32,000 nt of DNA from Delftia acidovorans NBRC 14950 (GCF_001598795.1 NZ_BCZP01000018.1:74796-106795); one strand, 5' to 3'; counted from the first letter of the stretch, positions 2,473-15,153 are shown. A program made the numbers and translations. The notes: generated from the sequence alone by a model not told the origin.

Positions 2473-3141
2473 TCAGCGGCTGCACTCGCCCTTGAGCGCA
2501 GCGGCCGCCAGCATGGGCAGGCTCAGCAGGCCCATGCCGCCGCCCTTGAACTCGCCCTTCATGCAATCGCCCTGGGCGGCCTCACGCATGCCGCTGGCCA
2601 GCGGGTCCTCGCGCTGCGCATGGATCTGGGGCCTGACCAGGCCTTGCCGGGCCGCCGACTGCACGGCCTCGCGGCCTGCGGCCGAGTCCAGCAGGCGGCT
2701 CATGGCCCTGGCGCTGCGCGCGGTGTCCGGGACGGCCTCGGTGTCGGCGGGCACAGGCGCTTGCGGCGCGGCGGCTGTTGCGGCTTCCTCCATGGCCTTT
2801 GCCGCCCCTGCGCTTTGCCTTGAAGGCGGTGCGGCGGTGTCCGGCCGCCGCGCAGGCTTGGGCCTGGGCGCGGAACTGGGCGCGGGCGCCGGTCCGGGCC
2901 GGGCAGCCGCTGGAGCAGGAGAGGGGGCCGGCGTCGGCGTCGGCATCGGCATCGGCATCGGCATCGGCGTCTCGACCCAGACCACCTGAAGGCGGTGCGC
3001 CTCGGCCTGCCCGGTGCCGGGCCGCGCAATGTCCGGGGACAGACCCTGCCACAGCAGCGCCCCGTGCAGCAGCAGCGACAGCAGCAGGCCCGCGATCAGC
3101 CGCAGCCGTCCGCTGCTCAAGCCTCGGGCCCTGCCACCCAT
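2473..3141 (-). CDS. Hypothetical membrane-anchored Pro/Ala-rich protein with a Cys-flanked C-terminal hydrophobic motif
   Basis: The ORF has an N-terminal TM segment (LRLIAGLLLSLLLHGALLW), a (PM)4(PT)2 repeat and a long P/A-rich linker. The C-terminus reads DCMKGEFKGGGMGLLSLPMLAAAALKGEC. Start options are ATG 3141 and GTG 3165, and both overlap the 3' end of the upstream HTH gene. No family recognised. Confidence 0.55.
   Translation of the reverse strand: MGGRARGLSSGRLRLIAGLLLSLLLHGALLWQGLSPDIARPGTGQAEAHRLQVVWVETPMPMPMPMPTPTPAPSPAPAAARPGPAPAPSSAPRPKPARRPDTAAPPSRQSAGAAKAMEEAATAAAPQAPVPADTEAVPDTARSARAMSRLLDSAAGREAVQSAARQGLVRPQIHAQREDPLASGMREAAQGDCMKGEFKGGGMGLLSLPMLAAAALKGECSR
2930..2971 (-). 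repeat. In-frame hexanucleotide repeat (GGCRTC)x7 encoding PMPMPMPMPTPTP
   Basis: Seven consecutive GGCGTC/GGCATC units read directly at 2930-2971. Confidence 0.9.
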
Positions 3142-3332
3142 TCCAGCAGGTCGCCGGGCTGGCACTGCAGTGCCTCGCAGATGCGCTCCAGCGTGTCGAA
3201 GCGCACGCCGCGCACCTTGCCGCTCTTGAGTAGGGAAATATTCTGTTCGGTGATGCCGACCATCTCGGCCAGTTCGCGCGAACGCATCTTGCGGCGCGCC
3301 AGCATCACATCGAGGTGGACGATGATGGGCAT
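3117..3332 (-). CDS. XRE-family helix-turn-helix transcriptional regulator (YozG-like, HTH_26 type)
   Basis: The 71-aa product is MPIIVHLDVMLARRKMRSRELAEMVGITEQNISLLKSGKVRGVRFDTLERICEALQCQPGDLLEW. This is the typical short YozG-type HTH that is usually paired with a DUF2975 membrane protein. The ATG at 3330-3332 lies 2 nt after the stop of the upstream DUF2975 gene. The longer 169-aa track ORF is rejected as an upstream extension. Confidence 0.85.
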   Translation of the reverse strand: MPIIVHLDVMLARRKMRSRELAEMVGITEQNISLLKSGKVRGVRFDTLERICEALQCQPGDLLEWVAGPEA

Positions 3333-3334
3333 GC

Positions 3335-3883
3335 TCAGACGAATCCCGCGTTCTCGTCGGCGATGCGCCGCGCCTGCAGCATCACATGGGCGATGGAGAC
3401 CAGCACCACGCCGAGCAGGACCAGCAGGCCATCGTGCCAGTACAGGCCCAGCGTGACGAAGCGCTGCCCTGGCGGATTGCCCATGCTGGCCGCCACCGAC
3501 ATCAGCGCGCGCGTGAAGGGCAGGGCCAGCGCGCCCGCCAGCACCGTCCAGGCAAAGCGCATCAGGGCGTGCTGCGCCTGCTGGCCGAAGACACGGCCCT
3601 GCAGGTATTCGCCGAACAGTGTCCACAACTGGCGCAGCGCATACAGGCCGCAGCCCACGGGCAGCAGGCTGACCAGTGCGGTGCGCCAGCGCGCAGCCAT
3701 GTCCAGCGGCTGGCCGGGCGGCATGCCCAGCAGGCCTTCCGCCTGGCCCGAAAGATCTTGCGGCGACAGCAGGGCGGCTGCCGGCAGGGCCAGCAGCGCG
3801 ACGGCACCGAGCGCAATCAGGATGCGCGCCGCCTGGGAGTGGCGCCTCAGGGCGTTGCCCGCGGCGTGGGGCGTATAGTTCAT
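3335..3883 (-). CDS. DUF2975-like integral membrane protein (4 predicted TM segments)
   Basis: 182-aa ORF with four hydrophobic segments: ILIALGAVALLALPAAALL, ALVSLLPVGCGLYAL, FAWTVLAGALALPF and GLLVLLGVVLVSIAHVML. It sits directly upstream of the YozG-like HTH gene, which is the canonical DUF2975-HTH pairing. Confidence 0.72.
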   Translation of the reverse strand: MNYTPHAAGNALRRHSQAARILIALGAVALLALPAAALLSPQDLSGQAEGLLGMPPGQPLDMAARWRTALVSLLPVGCGLYALRQLWTLFGEYLQGRVFGQQAQHALMRFAWTVLAGALALPFTRALMSVAASMGNPPGQRFVTLGLYWHDGLLVLLGVVLVSIAHVMLQARRIADENAGFV

Positions 3884-3940: not shown

Positions 3941-4435
3941 ATGTCCAAGAAAAACTCTCATGTCAGCGAGACACCGGCCACGCAGCTGCTGCGCGCCCAC
4001 AAGGTGGAGTTCACCGAGCACCCCTATGAGTACCTGGAACACGGCGGCACCGAGCACAGCGCGGCCAGCCTGGGCCTGGACGAGCACATGGTGGTCAAGA
4101 CCCTGGTGATGCAGGACCAGGACGCCAGGCCGCTGATCGTGCTCATGCACGGCGACTGCAAGGTCTCCACCAAGAACCTGGCGCGGCAGATCGGCGCCAA
4201 GAGCGTGGAGCCCTGCAAGCCCGAAGTCGCCAACCGCCACAGCGGCTACCTGGTCGGCGGCACCTCGCCCTTCGGCACGCGCCGCGACATGCAGGTCTAT
4301 ATCGAAGAGAGCATCCTGGCGCTGCCGCGCATCGCCATCAACGGCGGGCGCCGGGGCTTTCTGGTGCAGCTGGACCCGCAGGTCTGCGTGCAGCTGCTGG
4401 ATGCACGGCCCGTGCACTGCGCGCTGGCAGAATAG
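3941..4435 (+). CDS. ybaK: Cys-tRNA(Pro)/Cys-tRNA(Cys) deacylase YbaK
   Basis: TPATQLLRAHKVEFTEHPYEY, KTLVM and GYLVGGTSPFG are YbaK/ProX editing-domain signatures. The 164-aa length fits. Confidence 0.9.
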   Translation: MSKKNSHVSETPATQLLRAHKVEFTEHPYEYLEHGGTEHSAASLGLDEHMVVKTLVMQDQDARPLIVLMHGDCKVSTKNLARQIGAKSVEPCKPEVANRHSGYLVGGTSPFGTRRDMQVYIEESILALPRIAINGGRRGFLVQLDPQVCVQLLDARPVHCALAE

Positions 4436-4603
4436 ATGCCCTGAAGAAATGAACATGACTTGCGCACACGGGAAGGCGGCCACCGCCTCCAACGGGTTCG
4501 CGCAGGTCCTGATGAAAAACATGTGTCGGCGATCAGGGAGGGCGGGCCATCATGGCCGGCCGGATCGCGCGCCGGCGCTCCACAGACCGGCCAAGGACTT
4601 CAA

Positions 4604-5284
4604 TTGAACGCGCTCTACCCCCTTCTCGCCACCGTGGCGGCCTACCTGATCGGCTCGCTGTCGTTCGCCGTCATCGTCAGCCGGGCCATGGGCCTGAATG
4701 ATCCGCGCACCTATGGCAGCGGCAACCCCGGTGCCACCAATGTGCTGCGTTCCGGCAGCAAGGCGGCCGCAGCCGTGACCCTGTTGCTGGACGCCGCCAA
4801 GGGCTGGCTGCCCGTGGCCCTGGTGCAATGGTTCGGCAGCCGCTTCGGCCTGGGCGACGGCACGGTGGCCATGGTGGCGCTGGCCGCCTTCCTGGGCCAC
4901 CTGTACCCGGTGTTCTTCCGCTTCAAGGGCGGCAAGGGCGTGGCCACAGCCCTGGGCGTGCTGCTGGGCATCAGCGTCTGGCTGGGCCTGGCGGTGGCGC
5001 TGACCTGGCTGATCATTGCCGTGTTCTTCCGCTATTCCTCGCTGGCGGCCCTGGTGGCATCCGTGTTCGCCCCCGTCTACTACCTCCTGTGCAGTGGCGT
5101 GGTCTGGTATGCCGAGACGCCGATTGCCGCCGCCATCGTCGCCATGGCTGCCCTGCTGATCTGGCGCCACCGCGAGAACATCCAGCGCCTGATGGCCGGC
5201 AAGGAATCCAGGCTGGGCAGCAAGAAGGCCGACCCGGCAGCCGCCGCGGCCAAGCCCGGCACGGCCAAAGGCAAGCCGCATTGA
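4604..5284 (+). CDS. plsY: Glycerol-3-phosphate acyltransferase PlsY
   Basis: [13 protein letters not shown]...[17 protein letters not shown]...[21 protein letters not shown] are PlsY signatures. The start is uncertain. I prefer the in-frame TTG at 4604 (NALYPLL...), because the track ORF from 4460 adds a non-conserved basic extension. Confidence 0.87.
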
Positions 5285-5382
5285 CCGCCGCCACCGCGCT
5301 GCGCTCCACGGGCGCAGCTTGCGTGAATGGCGTGGCCGGCCAGCCGCGCTCCAGGCCCTCTCACCACTGACGACCTTCCCAC

Positions 5383-6915
5383 ATGGCATCGAGTCCATCG
5401 CAGCGCGTCTACCGCGCACCTTGCCCCGGCTGCGGCGCGCCCGTGGAATTTTCCAGCGCCCAGGCCAGCTACGCCGTCTGCGAGTTCTGCCGCAGCACCG
5501 TGGTGCGCCAGGGCGATGTGCTGCAGCGCCGCGGCTCCATGGCCGAGGTCTTCGAGGACTACAGCCCCCTGCGCATCGGCGCCACGGGCCAGATGCTGCG
5601 CAACGGCAAGCCCGAGCACTTCACCCTGGTCGGGCGGCTGCAACTCAAGAGCGAGGCGGGGGCCTGGAGCGAATGGGTTGCCGCGTTCAGCGATGGTGCG
5701 CTGGGCTTTCTGAGCGAGGACAACGGCCAGTTCGTCTGGTCCTGGCCCTGGGAGGCCGAGGCCCTGCGCAACGGGCCGTTCAAGGCCTCCGACTGGCTGC
5801 TGGGCTCGCAGCGCGTGCTCGGCGGCAAGAGCTTCACGGTCAGCAGCGTGCAGAACGCGCGGCTGGTATCGGCCCAGGGCGAGCTGGCGCAGCTTCCCGA
5901 GCCCGGCACGCCGTACTGGCTGGTGGAGCTGCGCAGCGAGCAGGGCCAGGTCCTGTCCGTGGACTTCTCGGCCCAGCCGCCTGCGCTGAGCCTGGGCGAA
6001 CGCGTGGTGCTGGACGACCTCAGGCTGCAGGGCCTGCGCGACGGCGCCTCGCTCAAGGGCGAGCAGGGCAGGCACTTCAACTGCCCCAAGTGCGGCGCCG
6101 TGGTGCCCGTGCGCTTCACCACCACCAAGAGCCTGAGCTGCCCCAGTTGCGGATCGCTGGTGGACCTGAGCCAGGGCATTGGCAAGGAACTGTCCTATGC
6201 CGAACAGAACGAGCCCGTGCGCCCCGCCATCCCCCTGGGCAGCAAGGGCGCATTGGAAGGCCTGCAATGGCAGGTGGTGGGCTTTCAGCACCGCATGGGC
6301 CAGGAGCCTGGCGACGACGAGAGCTTTGGCTGGGAGGAATACCTGCTGTTCAGCCAGAAGGCCGGCTTCGCCTTCCTGGTCGATTCCTCTGATGGCTGGA
6401 GCATGGCCCGCGTGACCACGGGCGTGCCCAAGCTCTCCAAGAACCGCAGCACGGCCAAGTACATGGGCCGGCAGTACCAGCTTGAATCGCGCTACACGGC
6501 CGAGACCACCTATGCGCTGGGCGAGTTCTACTGGCCCGTGCAGCGCGGCCAGACCACGCGCAATGTGGACTATGTGAGCGCAGGCGCGCAGAACAAGGCC
6601 TTTCTGGCCAGCGAGACCGAGAACGGCGAGACCACCTGGTCGCATGGCAGCGCCGTCTCGGCCACCACGCTGGCCACGGCCTTCGGCCTCAAGCAGCTGC
6701 GGGACCGCTCGCAGGTCGGCGTGATGTCGGGCAGCCGCTTCGGCCTGTGGACCATCGTCATCGGCGTGGTCATCCTGTGGCTGGTGTTCGTCATGCTGCG
6801 CGGCTGCATGTCGCGCCCGAACTGCGACCCGAACACCGATCCCAACTGCAACAGCTACACCCGCAGCAGCGGCGGCTCCTGGGGTGGCTACACCTCGGGC
6901 GGCAGCCACAAGTAA
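5383..6915 (+). CDS. Tandem zinc-ribbon/DUF4178 domain protein with a C-terminal TM anchor
   Basis: There are two CxxC-N15-CxxC zinc ribbons (C14/C17/C33/C36 and C234/C237/C253/C256). Each is followed by a DUF4178-like segment (...WSEWVAAFSDGALGFLSEDNG..., ...FGWEEYLLFSQKAGFAFLVDSSDGW...). A TM helix (LWTIVIGVVILWLVFVML) and a Cys/Asn/Gly-rich tail close the protein. Confidence 0.8.
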   Translation: MASSPSQRVYRAPCPGCGAPVEFSSAQASYAVCEFCRSTVVRQGDVLQRRGSMAEVFEDYSPLRIGATGQMLRNGKPEHFTLVGRLQLKSEAGAWSEWVAAFSDGALGFLSEDNGQFVWSWPWEAEALRNGPFKASDWLLGSQRVLGGKSFTVSSVQNARLVSAQGELAQLPEPGTPYWLVELRSEQGQVLSVDFSAQPPALSLGERVVLDDLRLQGLRDGASLKGEQGRHFNCPKCGAVVPVRFTTTKSLSCPSCGSLVDLSQGIGKELSYAEQNEPVRPAIPLGSKGALEGLQWQVVGFQHRMGQEPGDDESFGWEEYLLFSQKAGFAFLVDSSDGWSMARVTTGVPKLSKNRSTAKYMGRQYQLESRYTAETTYALGEFYWPVQRGQTTRNVDYVSAGAQNKAFLASETENGETTWSHGSAVSATTLATAFGLKQLRDRSQVGVMSGSRFGLWTIVIGVVILWLVFVMLRGCMSRPNCDPNTDPNCNSYTRSSGGSWGGYTSGGSHK

Positions 6916-6933
6916 ACAACGGAGAAACTGATC

Positions 6934-7152
6934 ATGAACTTCGACTGGTTCAACCCCGCCGCCTTCTTCGGCTCGATCCTCTATGCGCTGGTGGGCGTGG
7001 TGGTGTTCTGGCTGTGCTTCATCATCATCGACAAGATCACGCCCGTGGACATGTGGGCCGAGATCGTCGAGAAGCACAACAAGGCGCTGGCCATGGTGGT
7101 GGCCGCCATGTGCCTGGGCATCAGCATCATCGTCGCTGCCGCCATCCACTGA
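6934..7152 (+). CDS. DUF350 (YjfL-like) small membrane protein
   Basis: The 72-aa product has two hydrophobic segments and the DUF350-type IIIDKITP motif. GGAG lies 11 nt upstream of the ATG, and the start is 18 nt after the DUF4178 stop. Confidence 0.8.
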   Translation: MNFDWFNPAAFFGSILYALVGVVVFWLCFIIIDKITPVDMWAEIVEKHNKALAMVVAAMCLGISIIVAAAIH

Positions 7153-7278
7153 ACGGGGCCGCCTGGCCCCCCCGCACTCCCCATCTCCCGCCGACACGCA
7201 GCCCGCCTGAAAAGGTGCGGCTGCGCTGCGCATGGCGGCGTTGTTGCGTGGCAACAAATTCCTTGTTGATAGTGAGTT

Positions 7279-7299
7279 TGCAAATGATATTCGTTTGCA
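7279..7299 (+). promoter_or_regulatory. Fur-box-like operator upstream of the TonB-dependent receptor
   Basis: TGCAAATGATATTCGTTTGCA is a TGCAAA/TTTGCA inverted repeat. The core GCAAATGATATTCGTTTGC matches 13 of 19 positions of the GATAATGATAATCATTATC consensus. It sits in an AT-rich stretch 43 nt before the receptor ATG. Confidence 0.5.
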
Positions 7300-7341
7300 T
7301 TCTAAATAGAATCGCCCCCTTCATTCGAAGAGAGGGTTTCC

Positions 7342-9501
7342 ATGACAGACCATCAAGCCGCCCGCAGGGCAAGGCTTTCAGCGGGTGTGACCGCTGGCAT
7401 CATCACCACCGCGCTGGCGGGCGCGGTCCATGCCCAGGAGGCCGCTCCAGCCGTTCCAGCCGATCCGGCCCAGGCACAGACGCAGACGCAGACGCAGCCT
7501 CAACAGGCCCACACCCTGCCCACGCTGCAGGTCAACGCCTCCCAGTACGACCCTGACGACGTGCGCCCCGAAGGCGTGACCACGGCGACCAAGACCTATC
7601 TGGCGCCCAAGGACATCCCGCAGACCATCGATACGCTGGAGGTCAACAAGTACAAGAGCTACGGCATCAACGACCTGGCCACCATGCTGGACGGCGTGCC
7701 GGGCGTGAACACCACCTACGACATGCGTGGCGAGGGCGTGTACATCCGCGGCTTCAAGGCCGACGAGAGCGACATCTACCGCGACGGCGTGCGCGAAAGC
7801 GGCCAGGTGCGCCGCAGCACGGCCAATGTGGAGCGCATCGAGATCCTCAAGGGACCGGCCTCCGTGCTCTACGGCCGCAGCGCGGGCGGCGGCGTGGTCA
7901 ACATGGTGAGCAAGCAGGCGCGCTTCGACGCCAAGAGCAGCATCACGCTGCGCGGCGGCTCCTGGGACAACGTGGGCGGCACCATCGACATCAACCGCGT
8001 GCTCAACGAGAACGTGGCCGTGCGCCTGACGGCCGACCGCGAGCAGGCCCACAGCTTCCGCGAAGGCATACGCAACCGCAACGAGATGGTCTCGCCCAGC
8101 ATCCTGGTGGACACCCGCACGGGATGGCGCTGGACCGGCCAGTACACCTATGACAACGTCTGGCGCGTGCCCGATCGCGGTCCGGTCTATGACCAGTTGC
8201 CAGCCGGCGTTTCCATCCGCAAGGGCTTCGCGGCGCCGGGCGACTACGTGGAAGATCGCCTGCGCGTGCTGCGCTCCGACCTGTCCTATGACTTCAACAA
8301 CCGCTGGAACCTGCGCTGGGTGGCCAGCAAGCGCGAGGCCAGCCAGGACTTCGACCACTATTTCGCCGGTACCTACCGCGCCGCCACCGGCAAGATCACG
8401 CCCAACTACGCTTGGCAGCAGACCCGCAACACCACGCTGTCCAACACGCTGGACCTGACGGGCAAGTTCAGCACGGGCAGCATCAAGCACGATCTGCTGG
8501 TGGGCCTGGAGGCCAGCGAGGAAGAGCGCGCGCCGCGCGTCGGCCAGCCCGGCAGCACCTTCTCCTACGATCCGTTCCAGCCCATCGTCTGGCCCAGCCG
8601 TCCGGTGCAGGGCAAGCCGACCCAGGACAACTATCACAAGGGCAAGGGCCAGGCGCTGTACATGCAGGACCTGGTCAGCCTGACCGAGCAGTGGAAGCTG
8701 CTGCTGGGCCTGCGCTACGACAGCTATGACTTCCAGAGCACCAACAAGATCGCCAATCTCACGCGCAAGACCGACGGCAACGGCTTCAGCCCGCGCGTGG
8801 GCGTGGTGTGGCAGCCGGTGCGTGAGCACAGCTTCTATGCGTCCTGGAACAAGAGCTACTCGCCCTATGGCGGCCGCGGCATCCTGACCGTGGAAACCGC
8901 CGTGGGCGCGGTGCCGGACGACGAGCCCCAGTACTCGCGCCAGTCCGAGGTCGGCGTCAAGAGCGACTGGCTCGGCGGTGCGCTGTCCACCCAGGTCTCC
9001 GTCTACCAGCTGGAGAAGTACAACATCCGCTACCGCCCCGATCCCGAGAACGATCCCTACACCTGGGCCATCCGGGGCAAGGACCGTTCGCGCGGCATCG
9101 AGTTCAGCGCGGCCGGCCGCGTGGCCAGTTCCTGGTATGTGCGAGGCGGCGTGGCCTTCATGGAGGCCAAGGTGGCTGAAGACGCGCAAAACCCCGCCAA
9201 CGTGGGCCTGTACCTGCGTGACACGGCCAAGCGCAACGGCAACCTGTTCCTGCGCTATGCGCCCAAGGGCCCCTGGTATGGCGAAGTCGGCGTGACCTAC
9301 ACGGGCAGCCGCTTCACCAACGCCGCCAACACGGCCCTCCTGCCCGGCTACACGCGCTGGGATGCGCTGGTGGGCTGGCGCCAGGACACCTGGACGGTGA
9401 CCGTGGCGCTGTCCAACCTGTTCGACAAGCAGTACTGGCGCTCCAGCTCCATGCCAGGCGCACCGCGCAGCGTTCTGGTCAGCGCCAACTACCAGTTCTG
9501 A
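7342..9501 (+). CDS. TonB-dependent siderophore receptor
   Basis: 719 aa. It has a signal peptide ending AVHAQE, a TonB-box-like TLPTLQVNAS and plug-domain motifs (IEILKGPASVLYGRSAGGGVVNMVSK). The barrel ends in the aromatic terminal motif VSANYQF. An in-frame (CAGACG)x3 repeat at 7477-7494 encodes QTQTQT. No adjacent FecI/FecR, tonB-exbBD or siderophore biosynthesis genes. Confidence 0.92.
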   Translation: MTDHQAARRARLSAGVTAGIITTALAGAVHAQEAAPAVPADPAQAQTQTQTQPQQAHTLPTLQVNASQYDPDDVRPEGVTTATKTYLAPKDIPQTIDTLEVNKYKSYGINDLATMLDGVPGVNTTYDMRGEGVYIRGFKADESDIYRDGVRESGQVRRSTANVERIEILKGPASVLYGRSAGGGVVNMVSKQARFDAKSSITLRGGSWDNVGGTIDINRVLNENVAVRLTADREQAHSFREGIRNRNEMVSPSILVDTRTGWRWTGQYTYDNVWRVPDRGPVYDQLPAGVSIRKGFAAPGDYVEDRLRVLRSDLSYDFNNRWNLRWVASKREASQDFDHYFAGTYRAATGKITPNYAWQQTRNTTLSNTLDLTGKFSTGSIKHDLLVGLEASEEERAPRVGQPGSTFSYDPFQPIVWPSRPVQGKPTQDNYHKGKGQALYMQDLVSLTEQWKLLLGLRYDSYDFQSTNKIANLTRKTDGNGFSPRVGVVWQPVREHSFYASWNKSYSPYGGRGILTVETAVGAVPDDEPQYSRQSEVGVKSDWLGGALSTQVSVYQLEKYNIRYRPDPENDPYTWAIRGKDRSRGIEFSAAGRVASSWYVRGGVAFMEAKVAEDAQNPANVGLYLRDTAKRNGNLFLRYAPKGPWYGEVGVTYTGSRFTNAANTALLPGYTRWDALVGWRQDTWTVTVALSNLFDKQYWRSSSMPGAPRSVLVSANYQF

Positions 9502-9549
9502 CGGCGGAGCCCGAGGCGCTGCGCTCCTTCCCGCTTTGCACGGTGTCCG

Positions 9550-11133
9550 TTGCACGCGGGAAGGGGCGCATCGCGCACAATACCGGCCGTGCAAACCTCA
9601 GCCCCTCTTGCCGGCGCGCAGCCGGCGCGTCCCATCGACATCGCCCTGCTGGTCAGCGTCTTCGTGATCGCGGCCTGCGGCCTGCTTTACGAACTGGCTG
9701 CGGGTGCGCTGGCTTCCTATCTGCTGGGCGATTCGGTCCTGCAGTTCTCCACCATCATCGGCAGCTACCTGTTCGCCATGGGCATCGGCTCATGGCTTTC
9801 GCGCTATTTCGAGGACCATCTGCCCGCGCACTTTCTGCGCATCGAGCTGATGGTGGCCCTGGTCGGCGGCGCGCTGCCGGCCACGCTGTTCATTGCCAAT
9901 GCCTACGCGCCCGGCGCGTTCCGCTTTCTGCTGTACGGCATGGTGCTGGTGGTGGGCACGCTGGTGGGGCTGGAGATTCCGCTGGTGATGCGCATCCTCA
10001 AGCGCAATGTGACGCTCAAGGACCTGGTGTCCCAGGTGCTGACCTTCGACTACCTGGGCGCGCTGGCCGTGTCGCTGGCATTTCCGCTGCTGCTGGTGCC
10101 CAAGCTGGGCCTGGTGCGCACGGGGCTGCTGTTCGGCTTCATGAATGCGGCGGTGGCGGTCTGGGCACTGCTGCTGTTTCGGCATGAGCTGCGGCGCCCG
10201 CGTGCCCATGCCCTGGCCTGCGCTGCCGTGCTGGCCTTGCTGGGCACGGGCATCTGGGGCGCCGACCATCTGACGCGCCTGGCCGACGACCATTTCTACC
10301 AGGACCGCATCGTGCTCTCCAGCAGCTCGCCCTACCAGCGCATCGTGGTGACGCAGGGGCGCCAGGGCGCGCGGCTGTACCTCAACGGCAACCTGCAGTT
10401 CGCCCAAAGCGACGAGTACCGCTACCACGAGGCCCTGGTCCACCCCGTGATGGCCGCGCATGGCGCGCCCAAGCGCGTGGCCGTGCTGGGCGGCGGCGAC
10501 GGCATGGCCGTGCGCGAGGTGCTCAAGTACCCCTCGGTGGAGTCGGTCACCCTGGTGGAGCTGGACCCGGCCATGACCGACCTGTTCAAGGACAACGCCA
10601 TGCTGCGCCGGCTCAACGGCGAAGCGCTCAGCGATGCGCGCGTGCACATCCTCAATACCGATGCCTTCCACTGGCTGCAGCAGGGCGGCGATACCTTCGA
10701 CGTGGTCATCGTCGATTTCCCCGACCCGACCAATTTCGCCATCGGCAAGCTGTTCACCAACAGCTTCTATGCCTTGCTGGACAAGCGCCTGGCGGCCAGC
10801 GGCTACGCCGTGGTGCAGACCACCTCGCCCCTGATCGCACGCAAGAGCTACTGGACCGTGGTGCAGACCATCGAATCCATCGGCCTGCAGGCCACGCCCT
10901 ACCACGCCCATGTGCCCAGTTTTGGCGAATGGGGCTTCGTCATCGCCAGCCACCGGCCTTGGCGCGAGCCCGATGCCCTGCCTGCGGGCCTGCGCTTTCT
11001 GAGCGCGCAGACCATGGCGCTGATGTTCGACTTCCCGCTGGACATGGCGCGTGTGCCGGCCGAGGTCAACCGCCTGTCGAACCAGGTGCTGGTCAACACC
11101 TACGAGCGCGAATGGGGCAGGGTGGAGCGTTGA
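9550..11133 (+). CDS. Polyamine aminopropyltransferase (spermidine synthase-like) fused to an N-terminal ~7-TM domain
   Basis: The C-terminal half carries SpeE motifs: YQRIVV, LYLNG..Q..DEYRYHE, VLGGGDGMAVREV and VDFPDPTNFAIGKLFT. The N-terminal ~235 aa hold about seven hydrophobic helices. The start is uncertain (TTG 9550 or GTG 9589). Confidence 0.85.
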   Translation: MHAGRGASRTIPAVQTSAPLAGAQPARPIDIALLVSVFVIAACGLLYELAAGALASYLLGDSVLQFSTIIGSYLFAMGIGSWLSRYFEDHLPAHFLRIELMVALVGGALPATLFIANAYAPGAFRFLLYGMVLVVGTLVGLEIPLVMRILKRNVTLKDLVSQVLTFDYLGALAVSLAFPLLLVPKLGLVRTGLLFGFMNAAVAVWALLLFRHELRRPRAHALACAAVLALLGTGIWGADHLTRLADDHFYQDRIVLSSSSPYQRIVVTQGRQGARLYLNGNLQFAQSDEYRYHEALVHPVMAAHGAPKRVAVLGGGDGMAVREVLKYPSVESVTLVELDPAMTDLFKDNAMLRRLNGEALSDARVHILNTDAFHWLQQGGDTFDVVIVDFPDPTNFAIGKLFTNSFYALLDKRLAASGYAVVQTTSPLIARKSYWTVVQTIESIGLQATPYHAHVPSFGEWGFVIASHRPWREPDALPAGLRFLSAQTMALMFDFPLDMARVPAEVNRLSNQVLVNTYEREWGRVER

Positions 11134-12866
11134 GCACCGGCCTCTCGCCCCTGTGGAGCCGGCGCCAATGGCTGCAGGGCCTGGCCGGCGGCGCGGCCCT
11201 GGGCCTGTCCGGCTGCACGCCAACGCCACCGCGGCTTGAGAACCTGCCCGGCGGATTCAGCGGCGTGGCGCTGGAGCGCGGCCATGCCTTGCGCGCTTTC
11301 TGGCAGCGCCTGGGCCAGGGCCTGGCGCTGCCGGCGCCGGCCGTGGTGCACCGTGCCAAGGTGGTGATTGCCGGCGGCGGCATGGCAGGCCTGGCCGCCG
11401 CGCGCGCACTGGAGCTGGCGGGTGTGCAGGGCGTGGCCCTGCTGGACACGCAGCAGGCCATGGGCGGCAACAGCCAGGGCGGCAGCATTGCGGGCCTGCC
11501 CTGTCCGCTGGGTGCCCACTATCTGCCCCTGCCCAGCGACGATGCGGCCGAGGTGCAGGACTGGCTGGAGGCCCTGGGCCTGCGCCAGCGCCGCGCGGGC
11601 CGCTGGCAGTACGACGAGCGCCATCTGTGCCACAGCCCGCAGGAGCGCCTGTTCTGGCAGGGCGCCTGGCATGAGGGCCTGCTGCCCGTCGATGGCGTGG
11701 CGCCGCGCACGCTGGAGCAGTACGAACTCTTTGCGCGCAGCGTGGCCCAGGAGATGGACAGGGCGGCCTTTGCCATGCCGTCCATCCGTGTCTGGCAGCG
11801 CGAGGGCCGGCTGCCCGCCGCCCATGCCGCGCTGGACGGCCAGACCATGCAGGCCTGGCTGACCAGCCAGGGCATCGATGATGCGCAGCTGATCTGGTAT
11901 CTGGAGTACTGCTGCCGCGACGACTTTGGCGCGGGCCTGGCGCGCGTATCGGCCTGGGCAGGCATTCACTATTTCGCCAGCCGCCATGGCTTCTCGGCCC
12001 CGCGCCGCCAGGACGAGCGCACGGCCGAAGACGCCGGCGACGCCGTGCTGACCTGGCCCCAGGGCAATGGCTGGCTGTCGCAGCAGCTGGTGGCAGGGCT
12101 GGGCTCCACCGACCTGCAGACGGATTGCAGCGTGCTATCCATCGCCGAAGGTGCCGACGGTGTGGAGATCGACGTCTACCACCATGGCCGCCAGCAGCAC
12201 GAGCGCTGGCTGGCCGCGCGCTGCGTCGTGGCCCTGCCCAGCTTCATCGCGGCACGCGTGGTACGCGATGCGCCGGATTTCCTGCGCGCGGTGGCGGGCC
12301 GGCTGGACTGGGCGCCCTGGCTGGTGGCCAACATCCATCTGCAGCGGCCGCTGGCCGACCGGCCCGGCGCCGATCCGGCCTGGGACAACGTGCTGTTTGC
12401 CGATCCGAATGCGGGCGGTCTGGGCTACGTGGACGCGGGCCACCAGGGCCTGGACCGGCTCACGCCCCGTCCCACGGTGCTCAGTTACTACCAGGCGCTG
12501 GGCGACTGGCCTGACGGGCGCGCGCAACTGCTGGGCCAGCCCTTCGGCTTCTGGCGGGACCGCATCGTCGGCAGCCTGCTCGTCCCCCATCCCGACCTGC
12601 TGCACAAGGCCACGCGCATGGAGATCACGCGCTACGGCCACGCCATGGCCATTCCCCGGCCTGGCGACCAGCAACTGCTCAGCCAGGTGGCGCTGCAGTC
12701 GCACCACCGGGGCCGCAGCGCGCAGTGCGCCGGCGAGCGCGTGGCCCTGCTGCCCACGCCGGGCACGAGACGCCTGTGGTTCGCGCATTCCGACTGGGCC
12801 GGCTACTCGGTACTGGAGGAGGCCTTCACGCGCGGCCACCATGCGGGCCTGTGGGCTGGCGCCTGA
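11112..12866 (+). CDS. FAD/NAD(P)-binding oxidoreductase (amine-oxidase-like) with a Tat signal and lipobox
   Basis: The N-terminus is MGQGGALSTGLSPLWSRRQWLQGLAGGAALGLSGC, combining a twin-arginine motif with an L-S-G-C lipobox. A Rossmann dinucleotide motif follows (VVIAGGGMAGLAAARALELAG). The start overlaps the SpeE-like stop at 11131-11133: either ATG 11112 or TTG 11130, the latter in a TTGA overlap. Confidence 0.8.
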   Translation: MGQGGALSTGLSPLWSRRQWLQGLAGGAALGLSGCTPTPPRLENLPGGFSGVALERGHALRAFWQRLGQGLALPAPAVVHRAKVVIAGGGMAGLAAARALELAGVQGVALLDTQQAMGGNSQGGSIAGLPCPLGAHYLPLPSDDAAEVQDWLEALGLRQRRAGRWQYDERHLCHSPQERLFWQGAWHEGLLPVDGVAPRTLEQYELFARSVAQEMDRAAFAMPSIRVWQREGRLPAAHAALDGQTMQAWLTSQGIDDAQLIWYLEYCCRDDFGAGLARVSAWAGIHYFASRHGFSAPRRQDERTAEDAGDAVLTWPQGNGWLSQQLVAGLGSTDLQTDCSVLSIAEGADGVEIDVYHHGRQQHERWLAARCVVALPSFIAARVVRDAPDFLRAVAGRLDWAPWLVANIHLQRPLADRPGADPAWDNVLFADPNAGGLGYVDAGHQGLDRLTPRPTVLSYYQALGDWPDGRAQLLGQPFGFWRDRIVGSLLVPHPDLLHKATRMEITRYGHAMAIPRPGDQQLLSQVALQSHHRGRSAQCAGERVALLPTPGTRRLWFAHSDWAGYSVLEEAFTRGHHAGLWAGA

Positions 12867-12984
12867 TCTCCATACCGACCTCTTTCGTGGATTCCTGATC
12901 GCCGGGCAAGCTGCTGCCGGTTCGTCGCTGGCCGCGTCCGCCAGCGGGTTTGCCCTTGTCCGTGTGCCGTAGATGCCTGGCTAT

Positions 12985-13023
12985 AGTTCTATTTGATAGA
13001 TCTTGATTCTGTTGGATAGAACT
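12985..13023. promoter_or_regulatory. Inverted repeat AGTTCTAT-N23-ATAGAACT in the AT-rich region upstream of the amidohydrolase gene
   Basis: AGTTCTAT (12985-12992) is the reverse complement of ATAGAACT (13016-13023). The repeat encloses TTGATA and TAGAAC hexamers with about 18-bp spacing, a possible sigma-70 promoter. Confidence 0.3.
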
Positions 13024-13045
13024 TTGAAAAGGGTACGAAACGCAC

Positions 13046-14092
13046 ATGGGCAACTATCTACCGGTGAGGCCGGATTGGCTGGGCCTGCACGAGGAGGAGA
13101 TCCTTGAGCCATCGCTGGCCATCGTCGATGCCCACCACCATTTCTACGATCGACCGGGCTGGCGCTACCTGGCGGACGAGTACCTGGCCGACGCGGGCTC
13201 GGGCCACAGGGTCCGTGCCTCGGTCTACATGCAGGCGCTGACGCGCTACCGCACTGCCGGCCCGCAGGCGATGCAGCCGGTGGGCGAGACCGAGTTCGTG
13301 GTGCAGGCGGCGGAGGGCGTGCAGGACGTGCAAGAGCACAGGCAAGGCCATGCGGCCTGTGCCCTTGCGCAGGGCATCGTCGGATATGCGGACCTGCGCG
13401 CCGGTGCGGCGGTGCGCGAGGTGTTGCTGGCCCATCTGGAGGCCGGCAAGGGGCGCTTTCGTGGCATCCGGCACCTGGTGACCTGGGACGCGGACAGTTC
13501 CCTGGTCAATCCCCTGACCGCCGCGCCGCAGGGCCTGCTGCTGGACCGGTCCTACCGGCAGGGCGTGGCGCAGTTGGCGCCGTTGGGGCTTTCCTTCGAT
13601 GCCTGGCTGCTTTTTCCGCAGCTGCCGGAGCTGCTGGACCTGGCACTGGCCTTTCCGCAGACGGCCGTGATCATCAACCACTGCGGGGGCGTGGCGCGCA
13701 TCGGCGCCTATGAAGGCCGGCATGCCGAGGTGTTCGAGCGCTGGAAGACCTCCATGCAGGCCCTGGCCCGGCTGCCCAATGTGTACGTGAAGCTCGGCGG
13801 GCTGGGCATGCGCATCAACGGATTCGGCTTCGAGAAAGCGGACAGGCCTGCGGCCTCGGAGCAACTGGCTGCGGCCTGGAGACCGTGGATGGAGACCTGC
13901 ATCGAGGCATTCGGCGCCGACCGCTGCATGTTCGAGAGCAATTTCCCGGTGGACAAGGGCTCCTTCAGCTACGCCACCTGCTGGAACGCCTTCAAGCGGC
14001 TGGCGGCGGGCGCAAGTGCCGCCGAGCGCCAGGCCCTTTTCGAAGGAACGGCAAGCCGCGTGTACCGGCTGGGCCAGGCGCAGCGCGAATGA
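13046..14092 (+). CDS. Amidohydrolase-2 family metal-dependent hydrolase (LigI/sugar-lactonase-like TIM barrel)
   Basis: IVDAHHHFYD at the N-terminus, an internal IINHCGG and a C-terminal CMFESNFPVDK match the PF04909/COG3618-type pattern. Confidence 0.82.
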   Translation: MGNYLPVRPDWLGLHEEEILEPSLAIVDAHHHFYDRPGWRYLADEYLADAGSGHRVRASVYMQALTRYRTAGPQAMQPVGETEFVVQAAEGVQDVQEHRQGHAACALAQGIVGYADLRAGAAVREVLLAHLEAGKGRFRGIRHLVTWDADSSLVNPLTAAPQGLLLDRSYRQGVAQLAPLGLSFDAWLLFPQLPELLDLALAFPQTAVIINHCGGVARIGAYEGRHAEVFERWKTSMQALARLPNVYVKLGGLGMRINGFGFEKADRPAASEQLAAAWRPWMETCIEAFGADRCMFESNFPVDKGSFSYATCWNAFKRLAAGASAAERQALFEGTASRVYRLGQAQRE

Positions 14093-14184
14093 CGCTGCGT
14101 CACAGGAGCCATCTGCCTCGCCTGCCCCATCGATCCCATCTCACCCGACTTATTCGTCCAAGCCATCATTCCAAGGAGACCGCC

Positions 14185-15153
14185 ATGCCATCCCTCATCT
14201 CTCGTCGCGCCATGCTGGCGCTGGCCGGCACAGCCTGCCTAGCCCCCGCCTGGGCGGCGGCCCAGGGCAAGCCCGTGACCATCATCGTGCCGTATGCGCC
14301 GGGCGGCAGCGCCGATCTGGTGACGCGCGTGATCGCGCAGTTCGCCGCGCCGGGACTGGGCTCTGCCTTGGTGGTGGACAACCGCACCGGCGGTGGCGGC
14401 GTGGTGGGCTGGAGCGCGGCCGCGCGTGCCGCGCCCGACGGCCAGACGCTGCTGACCGTGGAGCTGTCCTATGCCATTGCAGCCGGCCTGATGCCGAACC
14501 TGCCCTTCGATCCGCGCAAGGCGTTCACCCAGGTCACCACGGTGGTGAAGGTGCCCCATGTGCTGGTGGTCAACCCCCAGGTGCAGGCGCGCAGCGTGGG
14601 CGAGTTCATTGCGCTGGCCAGGGCGCAGCCCGGCAAGCTCAACTACGGCTCTGGCGGCAACGGCACCAACACCCACCTGGCCGGCGAGCTGTTCAAAAGC
14701 GCAACGGGCGCCGACCTGGTCCATGTGCCGTACAAGGGCGCGGGCGCCGTGCTGGCCGACCTGATGGGCAACCAGGTGCAGGCCCTGATCACCTCGGTCC
14801 CCACGGCGCTGCCCTACATCCGAAGCGGCAAGCTCAGGGCACTGATGGTGACGGGCTCGGAGCGCAATGTAACGCTGCCTGATGTGCCTTGTGCCAAAGA
14901 GGCCGGCATCCCCGCCATGGACATCGACTACTGGATTGGCATAGGCGCCCCGGCCGGCACGCCTGCGGCCGCCGTTGCCCGGTTGAACAAGGAATTCAAC
15001 GCGGCACTGGCCCAGCCGCAGGCCAGCCGGAAGATGGCGGAGATGGGGCTGTCCGTGGTGGCGAACACGCCCGAGCAGGCCACGCAATGGGTGCAGAACG
15101 AGATACAGCGCTGGAGCGCCGTGATCCGGCAGGCGGGCATCAAGGCCGATTGA
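14185..15153 (+). CDS. Tripartite tricarboxylate transporter substrate-binding protein (Bug/TctC family)
   Basis: AAGGAGA lies 6 nt before ATG 14185. The product has a signal peptide (MPSLISRRAMLALAGTACLAPAWAAAQ) and the Bug-family signatures PVTIIVPYAPGGSADLVTR, NRTGGGG, LNYGSGGNGTNTHL and VPYKGAG. No tctA or tctB genes are nearby, so this is an orphan Bug. Confidence 0.9.
   Translation: MPSLISRRAMLALAGTACLAPAWAAAQGKPVTIIVPYAPGGSADLVTRVIAQFAAPGLGSALVVDNRTGGGGVVGWSAAARAAPDGQTLLTVELSYAIAAGLMPNLPFDPRKAFTQVTTVVKVPHVLVVNPQVQARSVGEFIALARAQPGKLNYGSGGNGTNTHLAGELFKSATGADLVHVPYKGAGAVLADLMGNQVQALITSVPTALPYIRSGKLRALMVTGSERNVTLPDVPCAKEAGIPAMDIDYWIGIGAPAGTPAAAVARLNKEFNAALAQPQASRKMAEMGLSVVANTPEQATQWVQNEIQRWSAVIRQAGIKAD

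Follow-up and report, generated by a model that had tools for sequence, protein, structure and literature searches.

The locus considered here lies in a 32-kb stretch of Delftia acidovorans DNA (hereafter the window, with coordinates counted from its first letter). It consists of four plus-strand genes, which encode, in order, a DUF4178 protein, a small DUF350 membrane protein, a fusion of seven transmembrane (TM) helices with a SpeE-like aminopropyltransferase domain (SpeE7TM), and a lipoprotein predicted to be a flavin amine oxidase (FLAV); a gene for a TonB-dependent receptor stands between the second and the third (Table 1). From sequence comparison, we estimate a probability of about 0.7-0.8 that the four genes form a conserved module in which the receptor is a passenger. 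It is likely that the locus is the D. acidovorans copy of a conserved inner-membrane system, whose range would cover Comamonadaceae and, to judge from published work, reach far outside this family. An earlier note on this DNA had read all five consecutive genes as one envelope module with an iron-regulated receptor embedded in it. All five open reading frames (ORFs) are indeed present on the plus strand, with GC contents at third codon positions of 0.84-0.97, and each of the domain names given in that note was confirmed by Pfam and NCBIfam matches.

The composition of the module was derived from two surveys. The first, anchored on the DUF4178 protein with one genome per species, took the best 80 of 521 matching loci, all from Comamonadaceae, and the remaining module genes were located in these loci by tblastn. 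The second was made on metagenome contigs, was seeded with distant family members, and yielded 31 long loci. Among the genome loci, DUF350 follows DUF4178 in 79 of 80, SpeE7TM occurs further downstream, with its strand kept, in 66 of the 70 loci for which 9 kb or more of sequence was available (in 44 as the immediate neighbor), and FLAV comes after SpeE7TM in 38 of the 39 loci with room for it (directly after in 31 of 49, often with an overlap of stop and start codons). The module order is identical in the 31 metagenome loci, where the identity of the DUF4178 protein goes down to 37-44%. The four non-receptor genes are thus co-conserved as a same-strand module in both samples, and in this respect the earlier note is borne out. 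The closest genome locus is 98% identical to that of the window, and the five-gene order is the same in 8 close genomes. Insertions occur at both the DUF350|SpeE7TM and the SpeE7TM|FLAV junctions, so the core tolerates them at both. That these insertions separate the genes by several kb without loss would also suit a chance juxtaposition of neighbors that share no function, but the maintenance of order and strand in about 100 loci at 37-98% identity, together with the frequent start/stop overlaps, makes this explanation extremely improbable, and the survey comes close to refuting it.

The receptor is an unrelated passenger inserted at the DUF350|SpeE7TM junction and is not part of the core. 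It is placed outside the module because 66 of the 80 genome loci and every one of the 31 long metagenome loci lack it, because a Fur-like box and a promoter of its own accompany it, and because the same junction holds unrelated genes elsewhere; its inclusion in the module, as proposed earlier, is therefore not upheld. The 14 genome loci that carry it belong to Delftia and to some Acidovorax and Paracidovorax, with 66-98% identity. The Fur-like 19-mer that had been claimed upstream of the receptor is present, no other site of the window scores higher, and the overlapping sigma-70-like promoter is the sole promoter-like site in the region covered by the consensus scan for terminators and promoters (4300-13300). 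Receptor orthologs carry a Fur-like box (12-15 of 19 positions, 41-151 nt upstream) in 12 of 13 loci of related species; the exception, L040, reaches 10 of 19 and is probably a truncated copy. Since box and promoter belong to the receptor wherever it occurs, and the receptor is autonomous with its own control region, iron control amounts at most to local read-through in Delftia and is not a feature of the system, contrary to what had been suggested.

It has to be asked whether the five genes, receptor included, could instead be one iron-controlled envelope operon that makes or remodels a polyamine-derived molecule, for example a polyamine-based siderophore or its recycling. The shared strand, the short gaps, the lack of a U-tract terminator after the receptor, the location of the Fur-like box and the only recognizable promoter just before the receptor, and the slot shared by the orthologs of Delftia, Acidovorax, and Paracidovorax would all fit such an operon. 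Yet the metagenome loci without the receptor keep the other four genes, an extra gene in Acidovorax, in some cases on the opposite strand (ApbA), splits the receptor from SpeE7TM, and the slot is filled by unrelated cargo in other genomes. In addition, DUF350 and the receptor are each followed by a hairpin, terminator-like in the first case and strong in the second, and there is no siderophore biosynthesis gene among the window ORFs, so that a single iron-controlled operon is very unlikely. A role of the receptor as importer of a polyamine-based siderophore was also considered and was rejected, as no biosynthesis genes lie nearby and most copies of the module have no receptor.

The intergenic signals at the two ends of the receptor gene deserve some detail. 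The hairpin after DUF350 is weak evidence for a transcript end, because the scan gave 4 sites against 3.3 expected from shuffles. The earlier statement that no convincing terminator follows the receptor holds in so far as no U-tract terminator was found, but a strong GC-rich hairpin does lie there; it is possibly a terminator or a transcript stabilizer, it is poorly conserved among Delftia species (alignment A3), and no repeats that would mark it as an element of the repetitive extragenic palindromic type were found elsewhere in the window. The spacings of 18 nt, 189 nt, and an overlap (22 nt) given in the earlier note were reproduced; the spacing of 48 nt was not. The start of SpeE7TM is most likely the GTG at 9589 and not the TTG at 9550, because the GTG and the 25 nt preceding it are conserved among Delftia, the TTG falls in the hairpin, which is variable, and the protein has a length of 514 aa in public gene calls; with this start, the gap between receptor and SpeE7TM is 87 nt.

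Table 1. Features of the D. acidovorans locus, in window coordinates.
Feature	Position	Strand	Evidence and remarks
Module gene 1, DUF4178 protein, 510 aa	5383..6915	+	Pfam DUF4178 102.7 bits (cutoff 25); weak zinc-ribbon matches
Module gene 2, DUF350, 72 aa, 2 TM	6934..7152	+	Pfam DUF350 50.3 bits (cutoff 26); 18 nt after gene 1
Terminator-like hairpin after DUF350 (TTGTTGCGTGGCAACAA + T-rich tail)	7241..7257	+	Consensus scan, fold
Fur-like box (7280-7298) and overlapping sigma-70-like promoter (7284-7312)	7280..7312	+	13/19 to consensus
TonB-dependent siderophore-type receptor (Fiu-like)	7342..9501	+	TIGR01783 296.5 bits (cutoff 223.5); Plug 70.6; barrel 184.5
Strong GC-rich hairpin between receptor and SpeE7TM	9516..9576	+	Fold z = -4.0, 0/200 shuffles as stable; no U tract
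Module gene 3, SpeE7TM, 7TM + aminopropyltransferase (SpeE-like) fusion, 514 aa	9589..11133	+	NF002956/PRK03612, 688.3 bits (cutoff 472), ORF residues 27-524; GTG start
Module gene 4, FLAV, Tat-signal lipoprotein, flavin amine oxidase fold	11112..12866	+	22-nt overlap with SpeE7TM gene; Amino_oxidase 39.3 bits (cutoff 19.8); NAD_binding_8 35.5 bits (cutoff 21.9)

The SpeE domain of module gene 3 has as its closest solved structures the thermospermine synthase ACL5 (6bq2) and an aminopropyltransferase from T. thermophilus (1uir), with E about 1e-32. The catalytic motifs and those that bind decarboxylated S-adenosylmethionine (dcAdoMet), LGGGDG, VDFPDP, and DEYRYHE, show no variation among 52 family members and align with both structures. 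The pattern D-F-P-D-P is that of enzymes with larger acceptors, and the putrescine-specific pattern is D(S/T)(S/T)DP. The domain resembles the ACL5/TAAPT-type enzymes that use larger acceptors, and aminopropyl transfer is its predicted activity. In front of it, seven hydrophobic segments are conserved. In the 52 sequences with 7 TM helices, the loops of one side average 1.4, 1.8, 4.0, and 3.6 Lys plus Arg residues and those of the opposite side 0.02, 0, and 0.17, and by the positive-inside rule this asymmetry places the N-terminus inside and, by prediction, the catalytic domain outside. Of the 52 sequences, 50 have no Cys in the soluble domain, a weak sign in keeping with its export. As far as can be told, the predicted periplasmic location of the SpeE domain is a new point.

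FLAV begins with a putative Tat (twin-arginine translocation)/lipobox sequence, 'SRRQWLQGLAGGAALGLSGC', that comprises a twin arginine, a hydrophobic stretch, and a lipobox Cys (R17, R18, and C35, invariant in 24 of 24 sequences), from which export is predicted. The N-terminal motif 'IAGGGMAGLAAA' is of the dinucleotide-binding type for flavin adenine dinucleotide. An AlphaFold2 (AF2) model with a pLDDT of 83 and a pTM of 0.84, which is confident, adopts the two-domain amine oxidase fold; a Foldseek search with it matched 922 PDB chains at E <= 1e-3, headed by putrescine oxidase (2yg3, E = 2e-21), bacterial monoamine oxidase, NicA2, and SpdH. With Pseudomonas putida NicA2, P. aeruginosa SpdH, and Rhodococcus putrescine oxidase (PuO), FLAV has the fold in common (E about 1e-18 to 1e-21, target TM-score 0.54-0.73), but identity is only 13-20%, FLAV is predicted to be lipid-anchored, and it is about 130 residues longer than PuO. 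NicA2 and the spermidine dehydrogenase SpdH are Tat-exported enzymes. FLAV is therefore described here as a predicted Tat-exported, lipid-anchored flavin amine oxidase, with its activity on a substrate likewise predicted. The tight coupling of SpeE7TM to an exported oxidase is, as far as can be told, also new.

Two kinds of genes were seen next to FLAV in other loci. At the SpeE7TM|FLAV junction (window 11133), 24 loci contain a same-strand MHYT-PAS sensor of about 1250 aa and a Response_reg-HD_5 protein (for example L091:16163-20907), which may be a dedicated signaling pair for the module. A gene for a YkuD-type L,D-transpeptidase directly follows FLAV in 12 loci (for example L090:15328-15855), a weak hint towards peptidoglycan.

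The DUF4178 protein is composed of two tandem units, each with a Cys4 zinc ribbon and a beta-rich DUF4178 domain (446 aa), followed by a single TM segment at about residues 450-475 and a tail of 35 aa. The zinc-ribbon cysteines C14/C17/C33/C36 and C234/C237/C253/C256 are invariant in the homolog alignment A1. Because the bulk of the protein, zinc ribbons included, is predicted to be cytoplasmic, the earlier claim that each of the five products is located in the inner membrane or past it does not extend to this one. The tail is predicted to be extracytoplasmic and ends in ...RSSGGSWGGYTSGGSHK, which is invariant in the same alignment; its consensus after the TM helix (window 6780-6912) is ...RS(S)GG(S)xGG[YFW]S[ST]GG[SG]HK. 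His-Lys terminates the tail in 80 of 80 loci and in 32 of the 149 best cluster representatives, the DUF4178 search alone having matched 2,619 such representatives; a more distant subfamily of about 640 aa has an acidic 'RRWxDSD...' tail in place of the HK ending. As far as can be told, the invariant, putatively extracytoplasmic '...GGxHK' tail is a further new point. The AF2 model of the protein shows two beta domains and a TM helix at a mediocre pLDDT of 68, and no structural match was found for this model. In a sequence comparison with the PDB, only the zinc ribbon resembled a known protein, RNA polymerase subunit P/Rpo12, at E about 0.08. The partner encoded by the second gene is the 2-TM form of DUF350, half the length of YjfL.

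The neighborhood of the module varies among lineages. Outside the Delftia/Comamonas clade, a Band-7/SHOCT gene (Band_7_1/SHOCT) stands directly upstream of DUF4178 (61 of 80 species loci and two loci looked up separately); the Delftia/Comamonas clade has lost this gene from the locus or moved it. A gene for a class 1b S-adenosylmethionine (SAM) decarboxylase (speD) adjoins the module in Rhodoferax and Ottowia (L088, L047, and L067) and lies within about 5 kb of it in 10 of the 31 long metagenome loci. Among the ORFs of the window there is no speD, PspA, or Band-7 gene, as had been noted before for speD.

Some of these arrangements are worth recording individually. In Rhodoferax sp. OV413 (L088:7033-8903), the order is TetR, speD, a protein of about 267 aa with a Gly/Ser/Cys/Asp-rich tail and no Pfam match, Band-7/SHOCT, and the module, possibly its most complete form. 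One contig of an Ottowia metagenome-assembled genome bears two DUF4178-DUF350 pairs (L047 and L049), one accompanied by SpeE7TM, FLAV, and speD and the other with none of these within 9.7 kb. In an Acidovorax lineage (L092:6001-11738), class 1b speD is located away from the module, beside an NTP_transferase gene and a divergent PspA_IM30-YqiJ-Band_7/flotillin operon, a further link between dcAdoMet supply and membrane-stress genes.

The association of DUF4178, DUF350, and the 7TM-SpeE fusion has already been published in silico and is not new. PspA-CesT/Tir operons with a 7TM-spermine-synthase, YjfL/DUF350, the Ctha_1186 lipoprotein, and DUF4178 were described (SO_3763-3767 in Shewanella oneidensis), as were Band-7/2TM/SHOCT variants with a SAM decarboxylase (AdoMetDC) and a polyamine oxidase (Ravi et al., 2024, mSystems; PMC11237479); the same paper cites Li et al. 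2019 (Li, Kurihara, Kim, Liang, and Michael, Biochem J 476:2579). The remark in the earlier note that no function is established for these genes agrees with this published work. The Delftia locus has the 7TM-fused SpeE-like enzyme, DUF350, and DUF4178 in common with those operons, here in one same-strand neighborhood, and its relatives, like the published variants, include Band-7/SHOCT, an amine oxidase, and sometimes speD. It differs from them in that PspA (PF04012/PspA_IM30), CesT/DUF2170, the Ctha_1186 lipoprotein, RHH, and Band-7 are all missing from the window ORFs. Compared with the PspA-free variant, the oxidase is present in the window, whereas Band-7/SHOCT and speD are found only in related loci. 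The gene order is DUF4178-DUF350-SpeE7TM-oxidase, DUF350 is of half size, the receptor is inserted, and the DUF4178 protein consists of two units, carries zinc ribbons, is anchored by a TM segment, and ends in the HK tail. What Delftia has is a variant that contains the inserted receptor and has no PspA, Band-7, or speD gene close by.

Fusions of a membrane protein with a spermidine-synthase-like domain reportedly co-occur with functional class 1b AdoMetDC and DUF350. Such a fusion is said not to have complemented an E. coli spermidine synthase mutant, spermidine reportedly being absent from the carrier organisms, and is said to aminopropylate, probably, an acceptor other than putrescine. With these fusions of the 2019 study, the Delftia enzyme has in common the membrane-fused SpeE-like architecture, the linkage with DUF350, and the class 1b speD of its relatives; the window lacks speD, and neither the flavoprotein partner nor the predicted outside orientation nor the DUF4178 tail is known to belong to what that study described. 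The same cluster is presumably represented in Mycobacterium tuberculosis by Rv2599-Rv2601, and a literature search on these locus names gave nothing useful.

A more distant parallel is offered by E. coli, where YjfL of the yjfIJKLMC cluster is a DUF350 protein; the cluster named in the earlier note was confirmed. YjfC and YgiC are peptide-spermidine ligases according to Pederick et al. (2023), as cited in PMC11762307. The yjfIJKLMC and ygiBC clusters, like the Delftia locus, have a DUF350 membrane protein beside an enzyme that attaches a polyamine-type group, and they include a lipoprotein. They differ in that the enzyme is an ATP-grasp ligase and not an aminopropyltransferase, that PspA/YjfJ and DUF2170 are present, and that DUF4178 and the flavoprotein are absent. 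The suggested link of DUF350 and DUF4178 to polyamine-type enzymes is supported by yjfIJKLMC and by the speD genes that adjoin the module in some lineages.

For the four-gene module, the mechanism that seems most likely is a periplasmic write/erase one, although confidence in it is low and far below that in the module itself. In such a mechanism, a SpeD whose gene lies in the vicinity or at another place would supply dcAdoMet, and SpeE7TM would transfer the aminopropyl group, at the membrane, to an amine that is not putrescine, the transfer probably taking place on the periplasmic face, as judged from charge topology. The translationally coupled, lipid-anchored FLAV would oxidize the aminopropylated product in the periplasm, either for removal or for processing. 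The two enzymes would then be a write/erase or make/trim pair that acts on an envelope-located amine, an idea that arises because polyamine oxidases cleave next to secondary amines. DUF4178 and DUF350, with Band-7/SHOCT where present, might serve as membrane scaffold, sensor, or substrate, and iron regulation would be confined to the receptor. In a more specific and rather unlikely form of the proposal, the SpeE domain is periplasmic, the 7TM part delivers dcAdoMet or the acceptor across the membrane, the mark is placed on a lipid head group, on peptidoglycan, or on the '...GGxHK' tail of the DUF4178 protein, and FLAV erases or processes it. If true, this would be the first instance of a SAM-derived group transferred outside the cytoplasm, and the cell envelope would carry an aminopropyl modification that is reversible.

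Several points weigh against these proposals. Hydropathy, the positive-inside rule, and cysteine depletion are the whole basis of the predicted periplasmic placement; with 6 or 8 TM helices instead of 7, the SpeE domain would be in the cytoplasm, where dcAdoMet is made. We know of no SAM-derived cofactor in periplasmic use. The window has no speD, and a search with the Rhodoferax SpeD (120 matches with at least 75% identity), in which all named matches belong to further genera of the Comamonadaceae and neither Delftia nor Comamonas is represented, does not decide the case of Delftia. With regard to the receptor as a passenger, it is kept at one position in three genera and has diverged about as much as the genes on either side, which indicates long cohabitation, and read-through from its promoter into SpeE7TM and FLAV is possible in Delftia because no U-tract terminator follows it. 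Lastly, the presence of spermidine in D. acidovorans has been reported (PMC5977210), so that SpeE7TM could simply make spermidine.

This last point leads to the main rival of the envelope proposal, an ordinary polyamine locus, in which SpeE7TM is a membrane-tethered synthase of spermidine or another polyamine, FLAV is a catabolic or back-conversion oxidase, and DUF4178 and DUF350 are accessory or unrelated. Besides the spermidine content, this reading draws on the NCBIfam 'equivalog' model, which is named polyamine aminopropyltransferase, on the presence of every catalytic motif, and on the best structural matches of FLAV, which are putrescine/polyamine oxidases and spermidine dehydrogenase. 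In addition, P. aeruginosa reportedly has a dedicated speD2/speE2 pair from which its surface-located spermidine derives (Johnson, 2012, among the references of PMC11107197). The tight co-conservation with DUF4178, DUF350, and Band-7/SHOCT over divergent lineages, though, is unexpected for a housekeeping enzyme. The membrane fusion with its predicted outside orientation also speaks against it, and FLAV, predicted to be Tat-exported and lipid-anchored, would be away from the cytoplasmic polyamine pool. The DFPDP stretch is of the ACL5/TAAPT type and not of the putrescine-specific one, and the reported failure of such fusions to complement a spermidine synthase mutant points in the same direction. 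Taken together, an ordinary polyamine locus is unlikely, though considerably less so than the iron-controlled operon.

Membrane-fused SpeE-like enzymes with DUF350 and DUF4178 partners are widespread, and the question of their substrate dates from 2019. The analysis narrows the problem in that a minimal four-gene core is defined and passengers are told apart from it, and it points to the periplasmic face as the probable site of action and to an exported amine oxidase as a putative obligate partner. The conserved DUF4178 tail is a candidate acceptor, on which an aminopropyl group would add 57.06 Da, a shift visible to mass spectrometry. The embedded, putatively Fur-regulated receptor is the most striking feature of the window but is incidental and calls for caution against reading iron regulation into the system. 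The window itself brings no new principle, but the predicted topology, the oxidase coupling, and the conserved tail suggest concrete experiments.

The receptor has a signal peptide and a TonB-box-like 'TLPTLQV' at its N-terminus. With the Fur-regulated catecholate/siderophore receptors of the Fiu/CirA type, it has in common the Plug and 22-strand barrel family, the signal peptide, the TonB box, and the Fur-like box, but no equivalog cutoff is reached, the nearest named model, Fiu, giving 205 bits against 686. In other genomes, the junction that it occupies holds a ResIII helicase, UPF0149/SEC-C, SLFN_AlbA_2 ATPases, Fic, a ClC channel, ApbA, or a UbiA/GtrA/FAD_binding_4/SDR/YfdI_N cluster. An alignment of Delftia and Comamonas intergenic DNA for the boundaries of the receptor insertion revealed no similarity beyond the coding ends. 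The junction (window 7153-9588) is an insertion hot spot in Comamonadaceae, with cargo in L026:14613-17363, L027:11845-16224, L037:11905-13086, L030:11963-13414, and L089:11826-18021; the ResIII, SLFN_AlbA_2, UPF0149/SEC-C, and Fic cargo is defense- or mobile-element-like, and the UbiA/GtrA cluster is of glycan type.

The module is flanked in the window by ybaK and plsY upstream and by genes for an amidohydrolase and a TctC protein downstream. The remainder of the window is housekeeping (argG, folC, cvpA, purF, gltX, and tRNAs), and an Rfam scan of its whole length returned two tRNAs at 31.8 kb and no riboswitch or known RNA in the intergenic regions. The plsY gene (glycerol-3-phosphate acyltransferase, 4604-5284) is on the same strand as the module, ends 98 nt before the DUF4178 gene, and takes this place in Delftia and Comamonas only; in other genera, the place is occupied by Band-7/SHOCT. 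The amidohydrolase_2 and TctC (Bug-family) pair (13046-15153), directly after FLAV, is a strain-variable insertion, present in D. acidovorans L002, L005, L008, and L009 and absent from L001, L003, L004, L006, and L007, and it marks the downstream edge of the module. On the minus strand at 2473-3883, there are genes for a DUF2975 membrane protein, an HTH_26 regulator of 71 aa, and a protein of 230 aa without a Pfam match, the last of which varies in length between strains, from 106 to 224 aa in public gene calls.

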